Counted from the first letter of the stretch, positions 52,715 to 63,804 are shown. The stretch is DNA of 64,000 nt from Alphaproteobacteria bacterium (GCA_963667785.2 CAXXMU010000001.1:864001-928000); one strand, 5' to 3'. Numbers and translations: made by a program. The notes: generated by a model not told the origin, from the letters alone.

Positions 52715-52899
52715 CGGCCTTCTTCCAGGACGTCCTGCCGGCCCTGCGTCCCCGGCTCGGGGGCCGGGGCAGGCGCCGGGGCGTCCTTCCGTCCCTTTCC
52801 GGATCGGCAGCAAGGAGGCCGCCATGGCTAGCCGCGACTTCGCGAAGAAACGGCGGCGCAATCTCGAACGCTTCCACCAGCGCACCGAGGAGCGCCGCG

Positions 52900-53123
52900 C
52901 CGCCGACCGCGCCCGCACCGTCCACCTGCCGCCGATGGCGGTGGAGCTGTTGGAAGCGTTGCCGCGCGAGGGCAGTACCTGGGTGTTCCCGGGCAACAAC
53001 CGGGACGGGCGCTACACCGGCGGCGGCCTCGACCATGTCTGGCAGACCGTCCGCGCCAGGGCCGGACTGGAAGACGTCCGGCTGCACGACCTCCGCCACT
53101 CTTTGTGCGGCGTAATCTCCTAG
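52900..53123 (+). pseudogene. Tyrosine recombinase fragment (central catalytic region, ends at HDLRHS)
   Basis: RTVHLPPMAVELL..WVFPG..VWQTVRARAGLEDVRLHDLRHS then premature stop. Confidence 0.85.
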
Positions 53124-54203: not shown

Positions 54204-55634
54204 CTACTCGTCAGACTCATTGAGAGCCAGCCGATCACGAAGTACCCGATTCTCCATTGCCATGGATCTAATTCGACCAACATCCATTCCTGTAAGTCGC
54301 AGGAAATGGAGATGAAACAGGGCGTCCAGTCTAAGACAAATACCATACATCTTACTGTCACCAATGCCCCTTGCCCTGCGCTCTACTCTCTTGTCATAGT
54401 GTGTCAAATAGTTCCTCATGTCAACTATGTCTTGCACCAGAGACTTTATTTCATTTGTCGTTCCAAACAGATCCTCAAAGGGCTCAATCAGTCGCTTTAT
54501 TCTCTTTCGCAAAGAAATCTCGTTCGCGTACTTCAGTCTGGACTCCATGAAATTTCTTCTCTCGGGCGGCACTAATTCGATAGTGGTTGCACGCAACCAC
54601 TCAAAGTCGTTCAAATTCATTTCAGTTTCGTCAGAGGTTCTTCTATGAAGAGTTTCTAGAGCCTGTACAAGTGACAGGAAGACGCCATTCAAATTCCTGT
54701 GGGCACCAATTTTAGAAGATAGGTACAAATCAAACGCTGGATATATAGTTTCGTAGTCGGCCAACCATCTCACGATCGTTTTTCCGATATCACCAGAGAT
54801 ATCATTGTATCCAAAAGTCTTGGAGATGCGTGTATCCGGTTGTTGATCTTGCAGTTGACTGTGATAGAAAATACTCGTCACAACCTCCCGATCCCATTTA
54901 TCCAGCTTGTTACTTGAATAACCCTTTACCCATTCTATCGCCACAATCTTGTTCATCACCAAGCAAAGGAAAGTGTGTATCCGGTGTAACATCACGAAAC
55001 AGCGTTCAACGGGGAGCAGCCCCTTCGACGTTAGAGAAACATGCATACGCTGAGAAATCGTGGATGACAGATGAGATACCTTGTAGTCGGGAAGAGAAAA
55101 TGAAGGCGAGAATACGAACTGGAGTCGAATTCCCTCTGGCAAGGCTATAGAAATGTCATCCGGCTGCGTGTAATGAATCGCCCACTCTGCCTTTTCGGAA
55201 TCCGAGTTTAACTTTGGACGAAATCCGGAGATTGAAAACCATTCGTTGAGATTCTCCAACGAAAACTCTATCCGTGAGAACGCAATTGGTTCGTCTTCGA
55301 CAAATGAAGCTCCAACGAACGCCGCGCCAACATGAAATCTCGATTCAGACACATACCCTTCGATAATTCGCACGAAATAGAAGGGATCGTCTACAGCTAC
55401 GCATTTCTCCAAAGTTACCGGGTCATTATCGACTATACCCAAAATACGTTGGGTTTCTTTGCCAAAGGGACTGTTACTTTGAAGCTGTTGGGGATCAACG
55501 GCGGTAGGTCGATGGACTAGTCTCAGCGTTATTTCGCCTGATGTCGAGATACGTAGAGTTCCGGGATAGTGCTGGCCCGGATGGCTTGGAAGCCAAAAGA
55601 ATCCGGGTTTGTCGATGGGATCGGACAGTCGCAT
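54204..55634 (-). CDS. ApeA-like HEPN protein (ApeA N-terminal domain + HEPN RNase)
   Basis: N-terminal GFFWLP..YPGTL, C-terminal FLSLVQALE.LHR and RNYLTH (RxxxxH). Confidence 0.82.
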   Translation of the reverse strand: MRLSDPIDKPGFFWLPSHPGQHYPGTLRISTSGEITLRLVHRPTAVDPQQLQSNSPFGKETQRILGIVDNDPVTLEKCVAVDDPFYFVRIIEGYVSESRFHVGAAFVGASFVEDEPIAFSRIEFSLENLNEWFSISGFRPKLNSDSEKAEWAIHYTQPDDISIALPEGIRLQFVFSPSFSLPDYKVSHLSSTISQRMHVSLTSKGLLPVERCFVMLHRIHTFLCLVMNKIVAIEWVKGYSSNKLDKWDREVVTSIFYHSQLQDQQPDTRISKTFGYNDISGDIGKTIVRWLADYETIYPAFDLYLSSKIGAHRNLNGVFLSLVQALETLHRRTSDETEMNLNDFEWLRATTIELVPPERRNFMESRLKYANEISLRKRIKRLIEPFEDLFGTTNEIKSLVQDIVDMRNYLTHYDKRVERRARGIGDSKMYGICLRLDALFHLHFLRLTGMDVGRIRSMAMENRVLRDRLALNESDE

Positions 55635-56000: not shown

Positions 56001-56324
56001 TCAAATCGCCGCCGCGGCTTGGCTGTCGGGTCTCACGTCAACGTGTACCGTGACCCGCAGATTGCTGTCGAGCGCCGCAAGCATTTTCATCAGCCGGTCG
56101 AGCGTGAAGCGCCCGAGGTCCGCGTTCCGAATCCGCGAGAAATCCGCAGCGGCGAAACGGGTCAGCGCGGCGGCCTTGCGGACCGACAGACCGCGGTCGT
56201 CGAGCACCCTGATGATGCGGGCCGCCACCACCGCCTTGGCTTGCTTTAGGTCCGCGTCGGAATCGCCGATGTCGCGGAAAACGTTGCCGCTGCCCCCAAC
56301 CAACTCGAATTTGCTCTCGCTCAT
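56001..56324 (-). CDS. XRE/HTH antitoxin (HigA-like)
   Basis: GSGNVFRDIG, GLSVRKAAALT..ADFSRIRNADLGRFTLDRL; ATGA overlap with toxin stop. Confidence 0.9.
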   Translation of the reverse strand: MSESKFELVGGSGNVFRDIGDSDADLKQAKAVVAARIIRVLDDRGLSVRKAAALTRFAAADFSRIRNADLGRFTLDRLMKMLAALDSNLRVTVHVDVRPDSQAAAAI

Positions 56325-56671
56325 GGCATCGTCTCCCTCCTCAGCCGCGCCAGCCGGCCCCGGACCAGATCGATCTCGGCCTTCGGCGTCCCGATTCCCG
56401 TCTTCGACTTCTTCCGGAACGCATGGATCACCCAGAGCCGGCCCGCCAGCTCCGTCACGTAGACCACCCGCCAAGCGTCCGTACGATAGGGGACGGCATT
56501 CTGCATGACGCCCGGCCCGAGACCCTTCAGCGGTTTCGCGATGTCCGCCTTGCCGCCCTCCGCCCCGATCGTGAGCGCCGTGCCGATCCGATCCCGCACC
56601 GTTGTGGGGAACGACTCGAACGTCTTCCGCGCTGCCTTGACCCAACCGACAGGCCTTGTGTCAAGGTTCAT
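56321..56671 (-). CDS. RelE/ParE superfamily toxin (Gp49/HigB-like)
   Basis: FESFP, AKPLKGLGPGV, DAWRVVY, VIHAFRKKSKTGI.TPKAEIDLVR.RL. Confidence 0.9.
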   Translation of the reverse strand: MNLDTRPVGWVKAARKTFESFPTTVRDRIGTALTIGAEGGKADIAKPLKGLGPGVMQNAVPYRTDAWRVVYVTELAGRLWVIHAFRKKSKTGIGTPKAEIDLVRGRLARLRRETMP

Positions 56672-56677
56672 GGAGTA

Positions 56678-56707
56678 TGTTGTCAGTGGTGACTACACCT
56701 GTCAACA
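56678..56707 (-). promoter_or_regulatory. TA operon promoter/operator: TTGACA -35 within an imperfect inverted repeat
   Basis: TGTTGTCAG (56678-86)...CTGTCAACA (56699-707), one mismatch; TTGACA on - strand at 56705-56700. Confidence 0.55.
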
Positions 56708-56718
56708 GGCCGGACGAT

Positions 56719-56901
56719 GGATTGCGGCATTCGTATGCTTCGATGGCGCTGGCCCTCGGCGAGAGGCTCACGATGATCGGGAAGTTGCTCGGTCACACGC
56801 AGGTGCAGACGACCGCCCGGTATGCCGATCTGGCGCGGGACTCGATCCAAAACGCGGCTGCCCGGATCACCGGGAGCATCGGTGGGGACCTCACCCCTTA
56901 G
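56719..56901 (+). pseudogene. Tyrosine recombinase C-terminal fragment
   Basis: LRHSYASMAL..IGKLLGHTQVQTTARYA (catalytic His and Tyr); no N-terminal part. Confidence 0.88.
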
Positions 56902-57384
56902 CATGGTTGATGATCGTCGCGCGCATCACGCTACGGCCTTGCTCGGACGGCGCACGCCCGGCGGTCTCGACCACCAGCTCTCTGAACTCACCGCCTCCCA
57001 TGCCGGTACCGCAAAAGTACGAGTTCTCATGTCTGACCGACATCGATTGCATTTCCAGATCAACATTTTCTATGCTGCGACATCCTAAATCGCACGCTAT
57101 CCTCCAACATGGCGACAATATTTGTAGACATTACCGAAGATACGAAGAACATTGAGAGAAACAACGACACAATTAGTAGGACTAGTCAAATATATCTCAA
57201 CTATACTCTTGTCTACGATGGGGTATTCTATCTTTTTTATTTTGAATTGTTACATAAATACTGAAATATGTGATTCTATTTTTGTATTTCGGCAATCTAT
57301 GCGTGATATTCTCAAATAATATTGGCGCTTGCTCATCCTCTGCTTTCTGCTATGGTAGGCCTACGATACAGCAGGAGATCTCTC

Positions 57385-57567
57385 ATGACCATCCAAGTGC
57401 AGGACCAGCCGGTCGAGCATTCAGAGGACATTCGCTCTGCCATCCTACAGGATCAGCCGGATAATCCGGCACTCCAGCGTCTGAAGGGGCGCCTGTTGGC
57501 CGACTCCGAGGCGAGCGAAGTCATCACCAGCTATGACCGCATGCACCACCGGCACAGCCGCTCGTGA
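57385..57567 (+). CDS. RiPP precursor peptide, YhhA-type triceptide (cyclophane) precursor, 60 aa
   Basis: AGGAG RBS at 57373-77; acidic leader with PALQRL helix; core ITSYDRMHHRHSRS; 10 nt upstream of an rSAM/SPASM gene. Confidence 0.88.
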   Translation: MTIQVQDQPVEHSEDIRSAILQDQPDNPALQRLKGRLLADSEASEVITSYDRMHHRHSRS

Positions 57568-57577
57568 GTTTCCTCGC

Positions 57578-59713
57578 GTGGCCGCCCCCAGGATCACCTC
57601 ATACCTGGTAAAGGTGGCCTCGCGATGCAACTTGGACTGTGATTACTGTTACGTCTATCATCATGCAGACCAGAGTTGGCGCTCTATGCCGCGACTCTTG
57701 TCTTCGGAGTACCGTGACGCCTTTGTCGCGCGCCTCGCAGAGTATGTTGGAGAAACAGGCCTGTCTCGTGTGTCGGTGGTATTCCACGGAGGCGAGCCGC
57801 TCCTAGCCGGACCACAATGTCTGGCTGATTTTTCAGAAGCAATTCGCGCATGTGTCGAAGCAAAAGTCGACATCGGCGTACAAACCAATGGCCTTCTTCT
57901 AAGCGACTCGGCACTCGACGTCTTCGAGCATGCGGACATTGCCGTATCGCTTAGTTTGGACGGCCCTCGCGCGGCTAATGACAAGCATCGGAACACTCGT
58001 AAGGGCCGATCGAGCTTCAACAGAGTTCTGGCTGCCCTCCAACGTCTAAAGAAACGTCCGGGTATATTTGCTGGCATTATAGCCGTTATAGATGTTTCTA
58101 CTCCTCCGCGAGACTTGTTTGAGTTTTTTGACGAGCACAAACCTCCCAAGCTCGATTTTCTGCTGCCCGATGCACACAATTTGTGTCCTCCTCCGGGTCG
58201 CGATTCTGAACCAGCCACATACGAACAATGGCTAGTCAGTGCATTCGACCTGTGGCTCGATCAGTACTCCCACATTCCCGTACGAACATTTGAATCTCTT
58301 CTGGATTCGGTGTCCGGCCTGGCATCTCACACTGACGCTTTCGGACTTGGAGATGTCAGCCTCATTTCAGTTGAGACGGATGGGAGCTATCACGATCTCG
58401 ACGTCCTGAAGGTCACCCGGGAGGGAGCTACTAAACTTGCCGGTACGGTGCTCGATACTTCAATCGCGACAGTCGCTGCCTCGGACGCTGTCGCGGCTCA
58501 TCGGAAAAGACTTCAAAAGGAAGGCCTTTGCCGCCAGTGTCAAGAGTGTCCGGTGATGCAAGTCTGTGGCGGTGGCTCTCTTCCACATCGGTTTGGTCCG
58601 AACGGATTCGATCACCCCACTGTCTACTGTCGGGAAATGCTTGCACTCATCACACATGTGCGCGCCCGGCTAGATGGAATGTTGCGGAAGTCGTATCCCT
58701 CACCTGTTCTCCGCGCTCCTAGTGTTGACTTAGCCGAATTCGAGCTTGCTGAAACCGCAGCTGGGATCATACAGGAGCTATACAAAAGTGCTCAAGACCA
58801 GGCGCATTTGTCATTCATCAACACGCTTCGAACGCTCGACTCCCAAGATCAAGCGATACACGCCTCGGTAAAGTCCGTTCTGGATTCGCCACCCGATTTC
58901 ATCACCAGATTGGCAACACACCCCGGCGCTATAGCCTGGCAACGGACCATGGCAGCGCAAATGGCCGGGAAAACCGCCCATACGGTGGATGGGTCACCGG
59001 TGCAGGCCGACTGCTCCTATATCCGCTTCCTTCTTAAGCACCCACCCTCCGATCACAATCTCAGTATCGCTGAGGACGACCCATGGCTTCGCGCTCCCTT
59101 TGGCGATGCCATCTACTTCGAAACGGAGGAAGTCGCCGCCAACGGACGAGCAGTCGTCGAACAGGCATTCCAAATAATTGACCGCTGGCGTCCCGCTCTT
59201 GGACAGGAGATGCGCATTGCCTCTAAGGCTGTCCAATTCGTTCGTGACCCGCTCGCCAATCCAAAGAAGATCGTGTCATTCAGCGACAATTCAGTTCCCG
59301 GTGCGCTCTATGTTTCGATTATGCAGGACGGAAGCTTGATTGACTCATATGATCTAGCCGATTCATTACTCCACGAGCATCGACACCAAAAGCTCTACCT
59401 TCTCGAACGGCAAAACCCTACAGTTGAGCCGACTTCCTTATTGGTTCCGTCGCCTTGGCGGGAAGACCCACGGCCGCCCTCGGGTCTACTGCATGCGATG
59501 TTCGTCTTCGTGGAGCTGCGGCGCTTTTGGAGTTTCGTTCACGATCAAGGTCCAGCCCGGCTCCACAACCGCGCTGCCAATCAGCTTCGTGATACCAATG
59601 CGCACCTTGCGCAAGCTTTTGCCACGCTTGAAAATTGTCCACTCACTCAGACTGGAGGCCAACTCGTGGAAGTTCTCAAATCGGCGTTCGCCGCCAACAA
59701 TCTAGCGGCCTGA
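57578..59713 (+). CDS. Cyclophane-forming radical SAM/SPASM maturase (YhhB/FxsB-like) fused to a C-terminal HExxH domain
   Basis: KVASRCNLDCDYCYVY (CxxxCxxC), FHGGEPLL, QTNG, SLDG; SPASM CQECPVMQVCGGG..TVYC; LLHEHRHQKL and SPWREDPRP..LLHA. Confidence 0.9.
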   Translation: MAAPRITSYLVKVASRCNLDCDYCYVYHHADQSWRSMPRLLSSEYRDAFVARLAEYVGETGLSRVSVVFHGGEPLLAGPQCLADFSEAIRACVEAKVDIGVQTNGLLLSDSALDVFEHADIAVSLSLDGPRAANDKHRNTRKGRSSFNRVLAALQRLKKRPGIFAGIIAVIDVSTPPRDLFEFFDEHKPPKLDFLLPDAHNLCPPPGRDSEPATYEQWLVSAFDLWLDQYSHIPVRTFESLLDSVSGLASHTDAFGLGDVSLISVETDGSYHDLDVLKVTREGATKLAGTVLDTSIATVAASDAVAAHRKRLQKEGLCRQCQECPVMQVCGGGSLPHRFGPNGFDHPTVYCREMLALITHVRARLDGMLRKSYPSPVLRAPSVDLAEFELAETAAGIIQELYKSAQDQAHLSFINTLRTLDSQDQAIHASVKSVLDSPPDFITRLATHPGAIAWQRTMAAQMAGKTAHTVDGSPVQADCSYIRFLLKHPPSDHNLSIAEDDPWLRAPFGDAIYFETEEVAANGRAVVEQAFQIIDRWRPALGQEMRIASKAVQFVRDPLANPKKIVSFSDNSVPGALYVSIMQDGSLIDSYDLADSLLHEHRHQKLYLLERQNPTVEPTSLLVPSPWREDPRPPSGLLHAMFVFVELRRFWSFVHDQGPARLHNRAANQLRDTNAHLAQAFATLENCPLTQTGGQLVEVLKSAFAANNLAA

Positions 59714-59717
59714 ACAC

Positions 59718-60716
59718 TTGATCGTACTCCCCGTCGACTCCCTCCCATCCGCACCTGCCGACCAGCACGGGGCTTTGAGGAACTACTTTTGCGACAAGGA
59801 CGCACGAGCAAAGCGAACAAAGGACGGCTGGGAACTGACCCTAGCTTGGTCCGATGATCTTGATCGTCATGTCGATCCGAAGCTCCCAATTGGCCTCAGC
59901 TGGTGGAGCAATGGCATCACGCCCGCGGATATGGTACTAGCCATCCGCCCTTCTGGACGACTACTCACTTCCCTTTACGATACTTGGGCACTGTATGGCT
60001 GGAGTGAATGGCTTGCAGGCCAGACCACTCCAGACGCTTCCACGGTAGTCATTCTTCACGTCGATGATCATAGAGATCTCGACCCTCCGAGATTGTTCAT
60101 TGAAAACTCTCACCTTCGGGATCCTTTGACAGGCCGCAGTGTAGAACTTGACAACCCCGACAGCATTCGAAGTGCAATCCTGAGCGGCGCTGTAGGAATG
60201 GGAAGCTTCATGACACCATTTCTCCACGCAGTACCAAACGCTGAGGTGCGGCACCTTTGCCAACCTCCGAAAGCTTCGAGAACTCGCACCTACCAAATTC
60301 AAACACACGATATAGCCGATTCTCTTATCGATAAAGACGCACGCAGACCGGCAGTCTATCTCCATGAGAAAGTCGACGTTGTTGGACCCGGTACATATAG
60401 AGTAACACCCGATGTTGAAGAATGGTTGAGCGACATTGGGTCGGCCCCAATCCTACTTCACATTGACATGGACTTTTTCAACAACCGATATGATGGTGAC
60501 AGTGATTGGCGAGAGCGGGACAGTAATCTTGATCCACCTCTACAGGAAATTCTAGCCAAGATTGACAAATTGACCACCGCTTTGGAGGATAATGAGATTG
60601 CGTCGCGCATTGAACATATAGCAGTTGCATTCTCACCAGGCTTCTTTCCGGCCGAGCACTGGAGTACAGCTGCGGATCGCCTATTGCCGGCCTTAGAGCG
60701 ATTACATGGCAGCTAA
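59718..60716 (+). CDS. Ureohydrolase/arginase-fold metallohydrolase (UPF0489-like; candidate peptide arginase)
   Basis: ILHVDDHRDL (DxHxD) and LLHIDMDFF (DxD), AFSPGF; TTG 4 nt after the rSAM stop. Confidence 0.7.
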   Translation: MIVLPVDSLPSAPADQHGALRNYFCDKDARAKRTKDGWELTLAWSDDLDRHVDPKLPIGLSWWSNGITPADMVLAIRPSGRLLTSLYDTWALYGWSEWLAGQTTPDASTVVILHVDDHRDLDPPRLFIENSHLRDPLTGRSVELDNPDSIRSAILSGAVGMGSFMTPFLHAVPNAEVRHLCQPPKASRTRTYQIQTHDIADSLIDKDARRPAVYLHEKVDVVGPGTYRVTPDVEEWLSDIGSAPILLHIDMDFFNNRYDGDSDWRERDSNLDPPLQEILAKIDKLTTALEDNEIASRIEHIAVAFSPGFFPAEHWSTAADRLLPALERLHGS

Positions 60717-61176
60717 GCGCTCTTCAAAGTCGAGCAGGCGCCGGAGGCCCGTACGGCCCACGCCGAAGCCGCCCCCCACAACTGCGAAGTCTAAGGAAGG
60801 CCCCATCTCTCCCGAAGATGTCCTCCTCAAGCGGACCCGGGGAACACCGGGCCGAGGAGACGGACCAGGTGGCGAGAAGTGGCGAGTCGAGGCTGCAGGC
60901 CAACGCGCCGGTCACGTCTACGTCAACGTCATAGACGAACCTCCAATTGGCACGCACGCTTCTATTCAAATTTTTCTGAACAAGAAGAGCCAAGGTCGCC
61001 AAATTGGTCGCGTCGCCTATCGGGCAGCCTGTGAAGAGAGTCAGCATGACACCATCTATGCCCACATGAGCAGGTCCAACCACGCCTCGCGTCGCGCCGC
61101 CGAGGAGGCTGGATTCGTGGACGTAACTCCAACGGGCCACGCACAGCTCATCATGCGCCGATCTCGCCAATTGTGA
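60706..61176 (+). CDS. GNAT family N-acetyltransferase (RimJ/RimL-like) with basic N-terminal tail
   Basis: SQGRQIG acetyl-CoA motif A, SNHASRRAAEEAGF; overlaps upstream gene by 11 nt. Confidence 0.75.
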   Translation: MAAKRSSKSSRRRRPVRPTPKPPPTTAKSKEGPISPEDVLLKRTRGTPGRGDGPGGEKWRVEAAGQRAGHVYVNVIDEPPIGTHASIQIFLNKKSQGRQIGRVAYRAACEESQHDTIYAHMSRSNHASRRAAEEAGFVDVTPTGHAQLIMRRSRQL

Positions 61177-61763
61177 ATCAGCACGCCACGCTGCCACCTT
61201 GGCTAAAGCCCTCGGCCCATACCGACATCCTTCATGTGGCTGCGAAGATACGCCCCGCACTTCGCACCGAGCTTACTATCCCAGTTTCACACAATGTTGT
61301 CCGTGCCTGGATGCGGCACTTAGGATGGTACACAGCTATCGACGGTGACGACTTCATCGTCGTATCACCCTCCCCCAGACTGGCTCGCATGATTCTTGCC
61401 ATAGATCGTGACGTCACTCCTCACACTTTTCGGCTGGGCCATGCACTTGGCTACCCAACTTGCTGCTGTCGTGCAGCCGCAGGCGTTGGAGAGCAAAATC
61501 TTGACACTTGGGCGCTTGAATTATCTCGACGACGCTTCATTGGGCGCTTCAAGCTCATTGATCCGACCCGCTATAGAGATGGAAACGCGCTAATCAGCCA
61601 TATCCCCTGCTCAACCTTCTGTCACGCTTCGCTTCAGATTGCCGAAGCCACACTCGCGGCTCTGCGTAGATCCAATTCACCATTGCCGGTCTTGCGTGCT
61701 CCGGCACTGAGAGCCTTCACTTCTAGCCTATTGCGACGAGACTTGACGCGTACCCATGCATGA
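61173..61763 (+). CDS. DUF483-like Cys-motif protein
   Basis: LGHALGYPTCCC and SHIPCSTFCHAS; GTGA overlap with GNAT stop. Confidence 0.6.
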   Translation: MNQHATLPPWLKPSAHTDILHVAAKIRPALRTELTIPVSHNVVRAWMRHLGWYTAIDGDDFIVVSPSPRLARMILAIDRDVTPHTFRLGHALGYPTCCCRAAAGVGEQNLDTWALELSRRRFIGRFKLIDPTRYRDGNALISHIPCSTFCHASLQIAEATLAALRRSNSPLPVLRAPALRAFTSSLLRRDLTRTHA

Positions 61764-61788: not shown

Positions 61789-63804
61789 TTAGAACCCGAG
61801 TTCCTTCTTTAGAACTTCAACTGTCTCCGTCACAGCGAGAACTTCATCCCTCGCAGCCCTTGCCGCCTCTACGAGCTCGGTAAGCTCCGCATCTGGCACA
61901 CCGCGTTGATATGCCTCTTCCACACGAAAAAATAATCGCTTCGCTTCCCCTAGATACTCCAAAGCCTCTTTCTTACGACCCTTATCAACTAACCAATTCC
62001 CAAAATCACGGCAGGCTTGGGCCAAATGATGATGACCGCCGATAGCCTCCGACGTTCCCAAGTCAGACCAGACACCACCTATTGCTCGACGACTTTCTTG
62101 AACCGCTTCCGAGAAAGCGGCCTCACCTTTCTCGGCATTGGCGCGCATCAACAAGAGCGCGCCTCGTAGGTCGAGTATTCTCGACCCATGAACGGATTGT
62201 GCGGTGAAATCGTGCGCAGCAAGGAGTTCATTAATAGCTTCTATGGCGGGTTCTCTATCCCCTTGTGAACCTGCCTCTATGGCGGCCGCCGCCAAATCGC
62301 GTGTACAATGTATCCAGGTATCACCATTGCGATCAAGTGTTGCCAACGCGCTCGAATACGCCTTGATTGCGCCATCCCACCGAACACTGCGCCCTTTCGC
62401 TTTCTCGGCCAGAGTAGCTAGGGTCTGCCCAAATCGCCAATATCCTTCACCGTCTGAACTAACCATTCGCAAATACCAATCCCACAGTCTCGCTGCCTCC
62501 TTCAATCGTGCTGAGGATTTCGCCTGAGCAGCCGCGCTCGGAGAGGACGCATCACGGTCACCCAGACGTTGAAGTGCTATAGCACGAATACGTGCGGCCT
62601 CCGCGAACCGCTTGGCCAATGCAGGCGACACTTGATCCAGAACCGCGACATCGTCGCCTGCCAGGATCAGACCCGCAGCGTGTTCAATAAGTGCTTGCGA
62701 GCCCTTCTTGCCATGATCGCTATCCTTGAAGGCGTCTATTGCTCGGCGATAGCCCTTCATCGCAAGCTCAATTTCAGGGCTAGGTTTGTTATCAACGACG
62801 GCCGCGTGTCTGGCTTCCAGTGGAGACACCGGCTGCGCTATCCACGCGGGATGAAATTCAAGAGCTCGAGTTAATGTTGCAAAAAACACGTCTGCGTCTT
62901 GGCCAAGTATATAGAACTTGTTCGGTCCTGAAAGCAGCCGTCTGACCTCACTTCTTGTAATCGAATAATCGTTCTCGTGAAATATCCAATAAATTACCAA
63001 ATTCGGAAACTCTTCAGACGCATCAAACAGAAGCTCCATCACACCATCTTCGCCTCCGGCGTACCCGACTACGACTAAGAATCCTGTATCCTTTAGCATC
63101 CCGAACATTGCGCCTCTCATGGACAATGTCCGTCCTGCCGCTAGCATTGCTTGCCGGCTGTTGAGTGGGCTGTACGCATGTAACGAGCCATGCAGATGTA
63201 CTACTTGCGGCATCGCAGGGCGAGAAGATATCCGCTTTAGGGCTTCAAGACCATCCGCGATCACTGGAACATGACCGGCGAGAAGAATACCTTCCAGAAT
63301 GAGGCGATCGAAATTTGTGGTAAGTACGCTATGCACATAATGCTGTACAACAAGTTCTCCCAAACAAATATGGGCCCAATTGATCTTTCCAGACGCCTTT
63401 GCGACACTCCTTTGAATGATTTCACGTTGCTGCGGGTCCGAACGGATGTGCTTCTCAAATATTTCCGAGTAGTAGTCTGACCAAGTTGCTCCTTTCCTAT
63501 CAGTCAAGTGATTCTTTTCCTTAAGCCACTTGAGCGCACTCATTGCATCGACAGAGGTTGCTCTTGTGCCTGAATATTGTCGATACAGGGATATTGCACA
63601 TTCCTGAGCGATTTCACTGGCCAGAGGAACTCCGGCGCTTGCCGAGCACCCCGCACCGATCAGAAACACCGCGCCTCCACAATTCGGATCGTCTGGAATT
63701 TCCGAAACCTGTGGCCAGATCGACGTGCGTTTCAGCAACTTGAGTTGGTTAGCCAATTCGTCGATGTCGGCCTCTCTCGCCAATTTGCCGGTATAATCAG
63801 CCAT
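61789..63804 (-). CDS. SIR2-family (SIR2_2) NADase-like domain + C-terminal helical/TPR-like repeats
   Basis: FLIGAGCSASAGVP, VLTTNFD, VHLHGS, LVVVGYAG; Ala-rich helical C-terminal half. Confidence 0.85.
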   Translation of the reverse strand: MADYTGKLAREADIDELANQLKLLKRTSIWPQVSEIPDDPNCGGAVFLIGAGCSASAGVPLASEIAQECAISLYRQYSGTRATSVDAMSALKWLKEKNHLTDRKGATWSDYYSEIFEKHIRSDPQQREIIQRSVAKASGKINWAHICLGELVVQHYVHSVLTTNFDRLILEGILLAGHVPVIADGLEALKRISSRPAMPQVVHLHGSLHAYSPLNSRQAMLAAGRTLSMRGAMFGMLKDTGFLVVVGYAGGEDGVMELLFDASEEFPNLVIYWIFHENDYSITRSEVRRLLSGPNKFYILGQDADVFFATLTRALEFHPAWIAQPVSPLEARHAAVVDNKPSPEIELAMKGYRRAIDAFKDSDHGKKGSQALIEHAAGLILAGDDVAVLDQVSPALAKRFAEAARIRAIALQRLGDRDASSPSAAAQAKSSARLKEAARLWDWYLRMVSSDGEGYWRFGQTLATLAEKAKGRSVRWDGAIKAYSSALATLDRNGDTWIHCTRDLAAAAIEAGSQGDREPAIEAINELLAAHDFTAQSVHGSRILDLRGALLLMRANAEKGEAAFSEAVQESRRAIGGVWSDLGTSEAIGGHHHLAQACRDFGNWLVDKGRKKEALEYLGEAKRLFFRVEEAYQRGVPDAELTELVEAARAARDEVLAVTETVEVLKKELGF

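Follow-up and report, generated by a model that had tools for sequence, protein, structure and literature searches.

We analysed a 64,000-nt stretch of DNA from an Alphaproteobacteria bacterium (GCA_963667785.2 CAXXMU010000001.1:864001-928000; hereinafter designated the window), towards whose end a short gene for a putative ribosomal peptide precursor stands directly upstream of a radical SAM (rSAM) gene of the YhhB/ChlB type. The genes and signals in and around this cluster are listed below in the order in which they lie.

52824..53123 and 56656..56901, plus strand: integrase fragments
54204..55634, minus strand: ApeA-like HEPN gene (PF18862, PF18739; PADLOC PDC-S58, E 2.8e-62)
56001..56671, minus strand: Gp49-like/HTH_37 toxin-antitoxin pair
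57373..57377, plus strand: Shine-Dalgarno-like AGGAG, read from the sequence, 7 bases upstream of the precursor ATG at 57385
57385..57567, plus strand: YhhA/ChlA-family triceptide precursor, 60 aa, ATG to TGA (by NF041705 and ChlA matches)
57578..59713, plus strand: fusion of a cyclophane synthase (radical SAM/SPASM, ChlB/YhhB type) with a beta-hydroxylase (aKG-HExxH, ChlH type); start proposed at GTG 57578, longest ORF from 57533
59718..60716, plus strand: arginase-fold protein of 332 aa (hereinafter designated R), a distant OspR relative by profile search, AF2 model, Foldseek and VIA-align
60706..61176, plus strand: GNAT acyltransferase, 156 aa (PF00583, 25.1 bits, cut-off 20.7), sharing its first 11 bases with the R gene
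61173..61763, plus strand: DUF483-like Cys/His protein, 196 aa, its start overlapping the GNAT stop by 4 bases
61789..63804, minus strand: SIR2-like gene, convergent neighbour (PF13289, 29.2 bits; PADLOC pAgo-associated SIR2 models, E 2.1e-28)

The precursor and its fused maturation enzyme

Direct translation of 57385..57567 yields a peptide of 60 aa, MTIQVQDQPVEHSEDIRSAILQDQPDNPALQRLKGRLLADSEASEVITSYDRMHHRHSRS, the end of which is also written ...EVITSYDRMHHRHSRS and whose C-terminal core is ITSYDRMHHRHSRS. The core holds three triplets, Y50-D51-R52, H54-H55-R56 and H57-S58-R59 (residues 50-59, YDRMHHRHSR), and the pattern aromatic-x-R-x-aromatic-x-R-aromatic-x-R occurs once, at the precursor, in the six-frame translation of the window (127,996 residues). 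An earlier note on this DNA had picked out the same motifs, YDR, HHR and HSR, the last two back to back, and the translation places them where the note did. Its remark that no Gly-Gly leader cleavage site is visible is likewise borne out over the whole 60-aa peptide, in which G35 is the only glycine.

The note had also held that the supplied ORF track mis-starts this gene and lets the rSAM ORF run into it. Indeed, the mechanical ORF list opens the precursor frame at TTG 57322, giving 81 aa, and opens the rSAM frame at ATG 57533, giving a 35-base overlap with the precursor. M1 of the 60-residue form is invariant across 41 aligned homologues, whose starts are those with which their genes had been called. 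A start codon in the rSAM frame lies 0-95 bases past the precursor stop in five of six independent relatives (L004, L005, L006, L009 and L010) and overlaps that stop by 4 bases in the sixth (L007); in two of the six, L006 and L009, the rSAM frame is closed further upstream. Because the relatives offer an rSAM start codon around or after the precursor stop, with the frame closed upstream in two of them, GTG 57578, 11 bases past the stop, appears the likelier rSAM start in the window. A scan of 57000..57700 returned three promoter-like sites (1.4 expected), none of them in a good position to drive the precursor gene, and it detected no terminator.

The precursor scores 58.9 bits against NF041705, the NCBIfam model for the YhhA family of cyclophane-containing RiPPs (cut-off 36), with residues 26-59 aligned to positions 2-33 of the 33-position profile. 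It is the only match above the cut-off in its own genome, and the cut-off is reached in none of 14 control genomes; Pfam holds no match to the precursor. In a search of the PDB, the peptide matches the ChlA chain co-crystallised with ChlB (9gmc_B) with an E value of 5.6e-8. The tail of the ChlA R3A mutant present in 9gmc, ITSYDAMHHRHNRS, aligns with the core of the window, and the latter differs from wild-type ChlA in a single residue, Ser for Asn in the third triplet.

A search of a protein collection recovered 231 relatives of the precursor at E <= 1, and tails were counted for 120 among the matches listed. Within these 120 listed tails, the last 14 residues are identical to those of the window in 108, the others being ...HNRS (8), ...HSRA (3) and an extended form (1), so that HSR, with 111 of the 120, is the commonest third triplet. 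Genome and metagenome loci add further variants, namely YDK in L009, HTR in L011, YSR/HNR/HNR in an Oscillospiraceae bin and VYDRVHNRHNRGR in genome G275. The earlier note had proposed to align the precursors of homologous rSAM genes, and such a comparison sustains its motif: every homologue seen keeps the frame Y-x-(R/K)-x-H-x-R-H-x-R, with a single replacement of Arg by Lys, in L009. The positions of the acceptor Arg and of the donor Tyr or His are fixed, and the middle residues of the triplets vary (H, T or N at position 55). Towards the N-terminal side, the leader carries the motif NPALQRL-x-x-R, within which 41 sequences show no change at N27, L30, R32, L33 or R36.

At the DNA level, 40 distinct versions of the last 14 codons differ from the window by 204 synonymous and 24 non-synonymous changes. 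Not one non-synonymous change falls on Y50, M53, H54, R56, H57 or R59, and position 58 is the most variable of the core, with seven non-synonymous versions. The excess of synonymous over non-synonymous differences and the fixed core positions therefore indicate that the peptide is translated and strongly selected. Taken together, the sequence comparisons confirm the ORF as a genuine gene, which encodes the predicted precursor of a triceptide (a ribosomal peptide with three-residue cyclophanes) of the YhhA/ChlA type. An unchanging core over a range from Bacillota to Alphaproteobacteria is out of the ordinary for a RiPP and points to a single conserved target.

The next gene encodes two enzyme domains in a single chain. 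Its rSAM part scores 489.4 bits against NF041707 (YhhB/ChlB; cut-off 445) and its HExxH part, at residues 542-714, 133 bits against TIGR04267 (cut-off 40). Searching the PDB with the ORF returned ChlB (9gm3, E 4.9e-137) over residues 18-381 and ChlH (8s5f, E 3.2e-80) over residues 397-717. The rSAM motif CNLDCDYC (CX3CX2C) lies at residues 32-39, the C-terminal SPASM cysteines at 333, 336, 339, 345 and 366, and the HExxH motif reads HEHRH at 614 (all in ORF numbering). YhhC, the separate oxygenase of the split systems, gave no match to NF041706 at E <= 0.01 in the genome of the window, which is 98% complete; the same model detects YhhC in G275 at 229.9 bits. On these matches, the architecture in the window is the fused Chl type and not the split YhhA/B/C type.

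The arginase-fold protein R and its operon

Searches with the single sequence of R gave no PDB match at E <= 10 and no Pfam match at E <= 0.01. A profile built from 11 R orthologues has a sole match in the PDB, the peptide arginase OspR (8brp, E 5.5e-6), and aligns lHvDDHrD of R with LHVDEHSD of OspR. The AF2 model of R (pLDDT 90.7) returned OspR as its top Foldseek match (E 1.7e-9), and VIA-align superimposed the two over 220 residues with a Z score of 17.5 and an rmsd of 3.4 A. Other ureohydrolases, including agmatinases and arginases, reached a Z score of at most 11.8, 5.7 units below OspR. The earlier note had called this neighbour an arginase-fold enzyme, and the profile match, the structural match and the retention of the DxHxD and DxD motifs all speak for that assignment; the modelled structure confirms the predicted fold as an arginase alpha-beta-alpha fold with OspR as nearest relative.

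The metal ligands of OspR are His12, Asp39, His41, Asp43, Asp165 and Asp167 (PMC10028609). Among 104 representatives of the R family, H114, D116, H118 and D120 are present in all and D250 and D252 in 103. D116, H118 and D120 of R align with the ligands D39, H41 and D43, and HIDMD of R matches the OspR motif LDIDLD. The EEH(N/H)EAF motif of peptide arginases, which supplies the first ligand His (His12 in OspR), is absent from R, and residue 88, which the offset of the structural alignment puts in the His12 place, is Asp in 90, Glu in 12 and His in 2 of the 104 representatives. R has no formal membership in the curated arginase families, scoring below the cut-offs of both PF12640 (UPF0489; 15.2 versus 27) and NF052474 (FlmR/OhkR; 23.7 versus 350). 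One member of the family, P0183, passes PF12640 with 29.6 bits (cut-off 27).

The R family comprises at least 471 representative clusters at E <= 0.001. Residues 1-78 of R (window 59718-59951) form an N-terminal beta/alpha part outside the OspR alignment, which may bind peptide. Oddities within the family include one protein of 978 residues with an ATP-grasp domain and several members with unassigned N-terminal extensions of 150-340 residues. Among the best 150 representatives, R is fused to a GNAT domain in 15, and this domain is a homologue of the GNAT encoded in the window; the order is R-GNAT in 14 and GNAT-R in one (P0123, P0135 and P0128 are among the fused proteins).

The third gene downstream of the fused enzyme encodes a protein in which H84, C97, C98, C146 and C150 are invariant across 19 sequences. 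As regards DUF483, five of six members score below the cut-off of PF04467 (best E 2.1e-4), and the Atlas score to DUF483 clusters is 0.93. With respect to its fold, a profile found no match in the PDB and Foldseek returned none at E <= 0.001. A wide VIA-align search put first 2guk, a protein to which no function is ascribed (Z 7.3), and NleE (Z 5.0), which falls in the range that the tool designates as common; neither match is informative.

Is R part of the same operon as the precursor? We took loci that had been found without reference to R, because YhhA occurs in 2 and R in 1 of the 401 genomes searched in the class, too few for a test of co-occurrence. Among 32 metagenome loci found via the precursor alone, 18 are informative in that they extend at least 5 kb downstream. 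R is present in all 18, followed in each by the GNAT gene; the DUF483-like gene is present in 17 and a GT2 glycosyltransferase gene in 15. Among these loci are several near-duplicates (L021/L022 and L029/L031, for instance), which makes the independent lineages fewer than the loci counted. From the opposite direction, nine of ten loci found through R carry the precursor and the rSAM gene, and the tenth ends at a contig edge; these R-found loci span Alpha- and Betaproteobacteria, Acidimicrobiales, a Rubricoccaceae bin and an Oscillospiraceae bin. As judged from this gene order, R belongs to the precursor operon. RefSeq records name the precursor and rSAM genes yhhA and yhhB and list the R gene as 'hypothetical protein'.

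In most relatives, GT2 is the last gene of the operon. The window, L003 and L015 have a convergent SIR2-like gene instead, and a search with the L027 protein as query found no GT2 gene in the genome of the window. The window operon encodes neither an exporter nor a dedicated protease. Two loci stand apart. L009 has two copies of R (L009:8-565 and L009:1910-2905) together with the precursor tail YDKMHHRHNRS, in which Lys takes the place of the first ring acceptor. L047 (G275:C1:3412000-3430000) is a split cluster of yhhA, yhhB, yhhC (2OG oxygenase) and an HExxH gene without R; a transposase-like ORF lies between its precursor and rSAM genes, and a PtuA-like ATPase gene upstream scores 61.8 bits, below the cut-off.

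Genomic setting and distribution

From its start to about 53.5 kb, the window has a GC content near 70%, which falls to 45-57% between 54 kb and its end. The cluster sits in a low-GC mobile and defence island, the first 5 kb or so of which hold the ApeA/HEPN gene, the toxin-antitoxin pair and two integrase fragments, an arrangement that allows for decaying or silent cargo. The SIR2-like gene downstream also adjoins the cluster in L003, L015 and L027, and is taken here as a neighbour of the operon. Within the class, the operon is rare and patchy: the two YhhA-bearing genomes out of 401 include that of the window, which is also the only one with R, and YhhA is absent from the three genomes of the same family that were searched.

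Of the 95 ORFs that flank 22 related loci, 20, spread over 14 of the loci, have a PADLOC match at E <= 1e-8, compared with one of 28 ORFs in the first 51 kb of the window itself, a control that amounts to one genome and 28 ORFs. The flanking systems are diverse and include a pAgo with a REase partner (L014), a Hachiman-type helicase (L013), DarG (L017), IetA (L006), Ppl (L005), CapP (L007) and SIR2 (L003, L015 and L027). Such flanks show that the operon is island cargo, not that it has a defence function.

Proposed maturation and relation to known systems

By homology to tested and crystallised relatives, the NPALQRL-x-x-R leader motif would dock the precursor on the rSAM domain encoded by the next gene, which would then link the C-beta atoms of Arg52, Arg56 and Arg59 to Tyr50 C3, His54 C2 and His57 C2, respectively. 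The resulting three rings (50-52, 54-56 and 57-59) would lower the mass by 6 Da. YhhB couples C3 of Tyr and C2 of His to the C-beta of Arg (PMC11002830) and forms HNR cyclophanes (PMC11499958); closure of a ring on HSR rather than HNR is something we infer. The earlier note had envisaged up to three rings from Tyr or His to Arg; this agrees with the published chemistry of the family and with a core one residue away from that of crystallised ChlA, and the three predicted rings are to that extent a correct reading but not a new one, the family having already been named, tested and crystallised. The note had missed this prior curation and structure solution, as it had the fused aKG-HExxH domain and the GNAT and DUF483-like genes that complete the operon.

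Once the rings are in place, the fused aKG-HExxH domain would beta-hydroxylate the middle residues Asp51 and His55. In PMC12636437, which cites Morishita 2024, the rSAM-fused HExxH protein is an aKG/Fe enzyme that beta-hydroxylates Asp and His only once the cyclophanes exist. From the sequence matches, hydroxylation is expected at Asp51 and is probable at His55. YhhC of the split system, which makes erythro-beta-hydroxy-Asp (PMC12186529), belongs to a separate 2OG-Fe(II) oxygenase family, NF041706.

Further tailoring would involve R, which may take the guanidino group off one or more core arginines to leave ornithine, and the GNAT, which may then acylate the freed delta-amine, as the arginase/GNAT pairs of selidamides do; removal of the leader by the DUF483-like Cys/His protein is a guess. 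Conversion of Arg to ornithine by an arginase and acylation by a GNAT are proven in selidamides (PMC8784127), and it is because of this precedent, together with the pairing and fusion of R and GNAT, that we propose the same order of steps here. A route from Arg through ornithine to acyl-ornithine is a reasonable candidate. Arg52 would not be the sole target of R, because L009 has Lys at this position yet keeps two R copies, and R is not required for ring formation, because the YhhA/B/C-type cluster of G275 exists without it. Against such tailoring, all three core arginines are already cross-link acceptors, and an arginase site may be unable to accommodate an Arg in that state. In the literature covered, we found no role for R, the GNAT or the DUF483-like protein in YhhA/ChlA pathways; the primary Yhh and Chl reports, which may note one, lie outside that scope. 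As an overall explanation, a triceptide precursor that acquires rings and hydroxyls, with tailoring of the kind proposed, is to our mind very probably the best account of the cluster as its sequences compare. Taken by itself, the step from Arg to ornithine on the core falls somewhat short of an even prospect.

How do these readings stand against their alternatives? The precursor spans just 60 codons and finds no match in Pfam, as a chance open frame would, but the conservation pattern already refutes this view: the score above the NF041705 cut-off, the 231 homologues at E <= 1, the preponderance of synonymous codon differences and a position before the rSAM gene that is fixed in every locus leave it a negligible likelihood. 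The third ring invites a more specific doubt. The literature covered names rings of the YDR type and HNR rings only, and the tested substrates have HNR as the third ring; with position 58 being the most variable of the core, one of the three triplets could remain without a cross-link in the variant of the window. This seems very unlikely, given that HSR is the commonest form among the listed tails, that H57 and R59 never change in the 40 DNA versions and that the middle residue is the variable one in triceptides. Three rings are the reading we retain for the window. Hardly more persuasive is the proposal that the operon travels on mobile defence islands as cargo and that its product acts in phage defence or in conflict between strains and is not a conventional secreted one, which would leave the chemistry unaffected. 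The enrichment of PADLOC matches over the control, the ApeA/HEPN and SIR2 flanks, the low-GC region within a genome of about 70% GC and the lack of an exporter would all suit such a role; however, mobile islands gather defence genes irrespective of their other contents, the neighbouring genes are too varied and unrelated for any to be a fixed partner, eight of the 22 loci show none and the control is small. We regard this role as improbable, and keep to the description of the operon as island cargo.

The alternative that weighs most concerns the reaction catalysed by R. Rings and hydroxyls might form as described, with R hydrolysing some other amidine or amide or a small molecule instead of deguanidinating a core Arg, and the GNAT acetylating a new N-terminus or another amine. 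R does miss both curated arginase cut-offs and is without the first His motif, its fold is also that of agmatinases, formiminoglutamases, guanidine and metformin hydrolases and acetylpolyamine amidohydrolases (Z 9.7-11.8), and every core Arg is a cross-link acceptor. On the other side, OspR stands well above any other ureohydrolase in Z score and is the sole profile match in the PDB, P0183 carries the R family past PF12640, the strict pairing and the fusions with GNAT mirror the selidamide arginase/GNAT pairs (PMC8784127), and the core offers three invariant Arg and no Lys. We consider a different substrate for R rather unlikely, and core Arg the better candidate. If it is core Arg, this would also explain how the product could have been overlooked, an N-acetyl-ornithine residue (156.0899) being only 11.2 mDa lighter than Arg (156.1011) by our own arithmetic. 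The full extension of this reading is that the R/GNAT pair, with the DUF483-like protein and mostly GT2, rewrites C-beta-cross-linked Arg to ornithine or acyl-ornithine, which would yield an undescribed triceptide bearing beta-hydroxy-Asp, beta-hydroxy-His and imidazoles and directed at one conserved target, for example as a metal-binding or a conflict or defence factor on mobile islands; such a product is unlikely on present showing and is offered as speculation.

The gene in the window adds one copy to a RiPP family that has been curated, tested biochemically and crystallised, so that little is new in the precursor itself; possible novelty lies downstream, in an R family of several hundred representative clusters that is tied to these operons and to GNAT. 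The ChlA/ChlB-ChlH triceptide system of Chlorogloeopsis sp., reportedly the subject of work by Morishita et al. in Nat Chem in 2024 and Ruel et al. in JACS in 2025, has the same fused two-domain enzyme and the same leader motif as the window (PDB 9gm3, 9gmc and 8s5f). The two cores are identical but for one residue, HSR in the window and HNR in ChlA.

The split system YhhA/YhhB/YhhC was reportedly described by Sugiyama et al. in JACS in 2022. Summaries of it stand in PMC11002830, PMC11499958 and PMC12186529. The precursor and rSAM protein of the window pass the YhhA and YhhB models and would make the same Tyr/His-to-Arg cross-links. By contrast, the rSAM gene of the split system is unfused, with YhhC and an independent HExxH protein encoded after it, an arrangement seen in G275; the genome of the window is without YhhC, and G275 is without the arginase-like gene.

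Minviopeptin (MicA-D; PMC12912966) shares with the window a set of three aromatic-x-X triplets served by one rSAM enzyme, and its auxiliary enzymes require the peptide to be cyclised first. Its rSAM enzyme, however, is of a PasB-like lineage, its triplets are YSK, HAS and FTK, and its tailoring consists of ADP-ribosylation and oxidative C-terminal cleavage.

R itself is best compared with OspR (8brp; PMC10028609) and with KspR/KspN and PhaR/PhaN (PMC8784127), with which it has in common the arginase fold, the DxHxD and DxD motifs and a GNAT that is adjacent or fused. It differs from OspR in having what is probably Asp or Glu at the place of His12 and an additional N-terminal part of about 78 residues, and from OspR, KspR and PhaR in scoring below the PF12640 and NF052474 cut-offs. 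The candidate substrates differ as well: those of OspR and the selidamide enzymes are proteusins or lanthipeptides, whereas in the window they would be C-beta-cross-linked Arg residues of a radical SAM peptide. If R does make ornithine on such a cyclophane, the reach of peptide arginases would be extended to radical SAM peptides.
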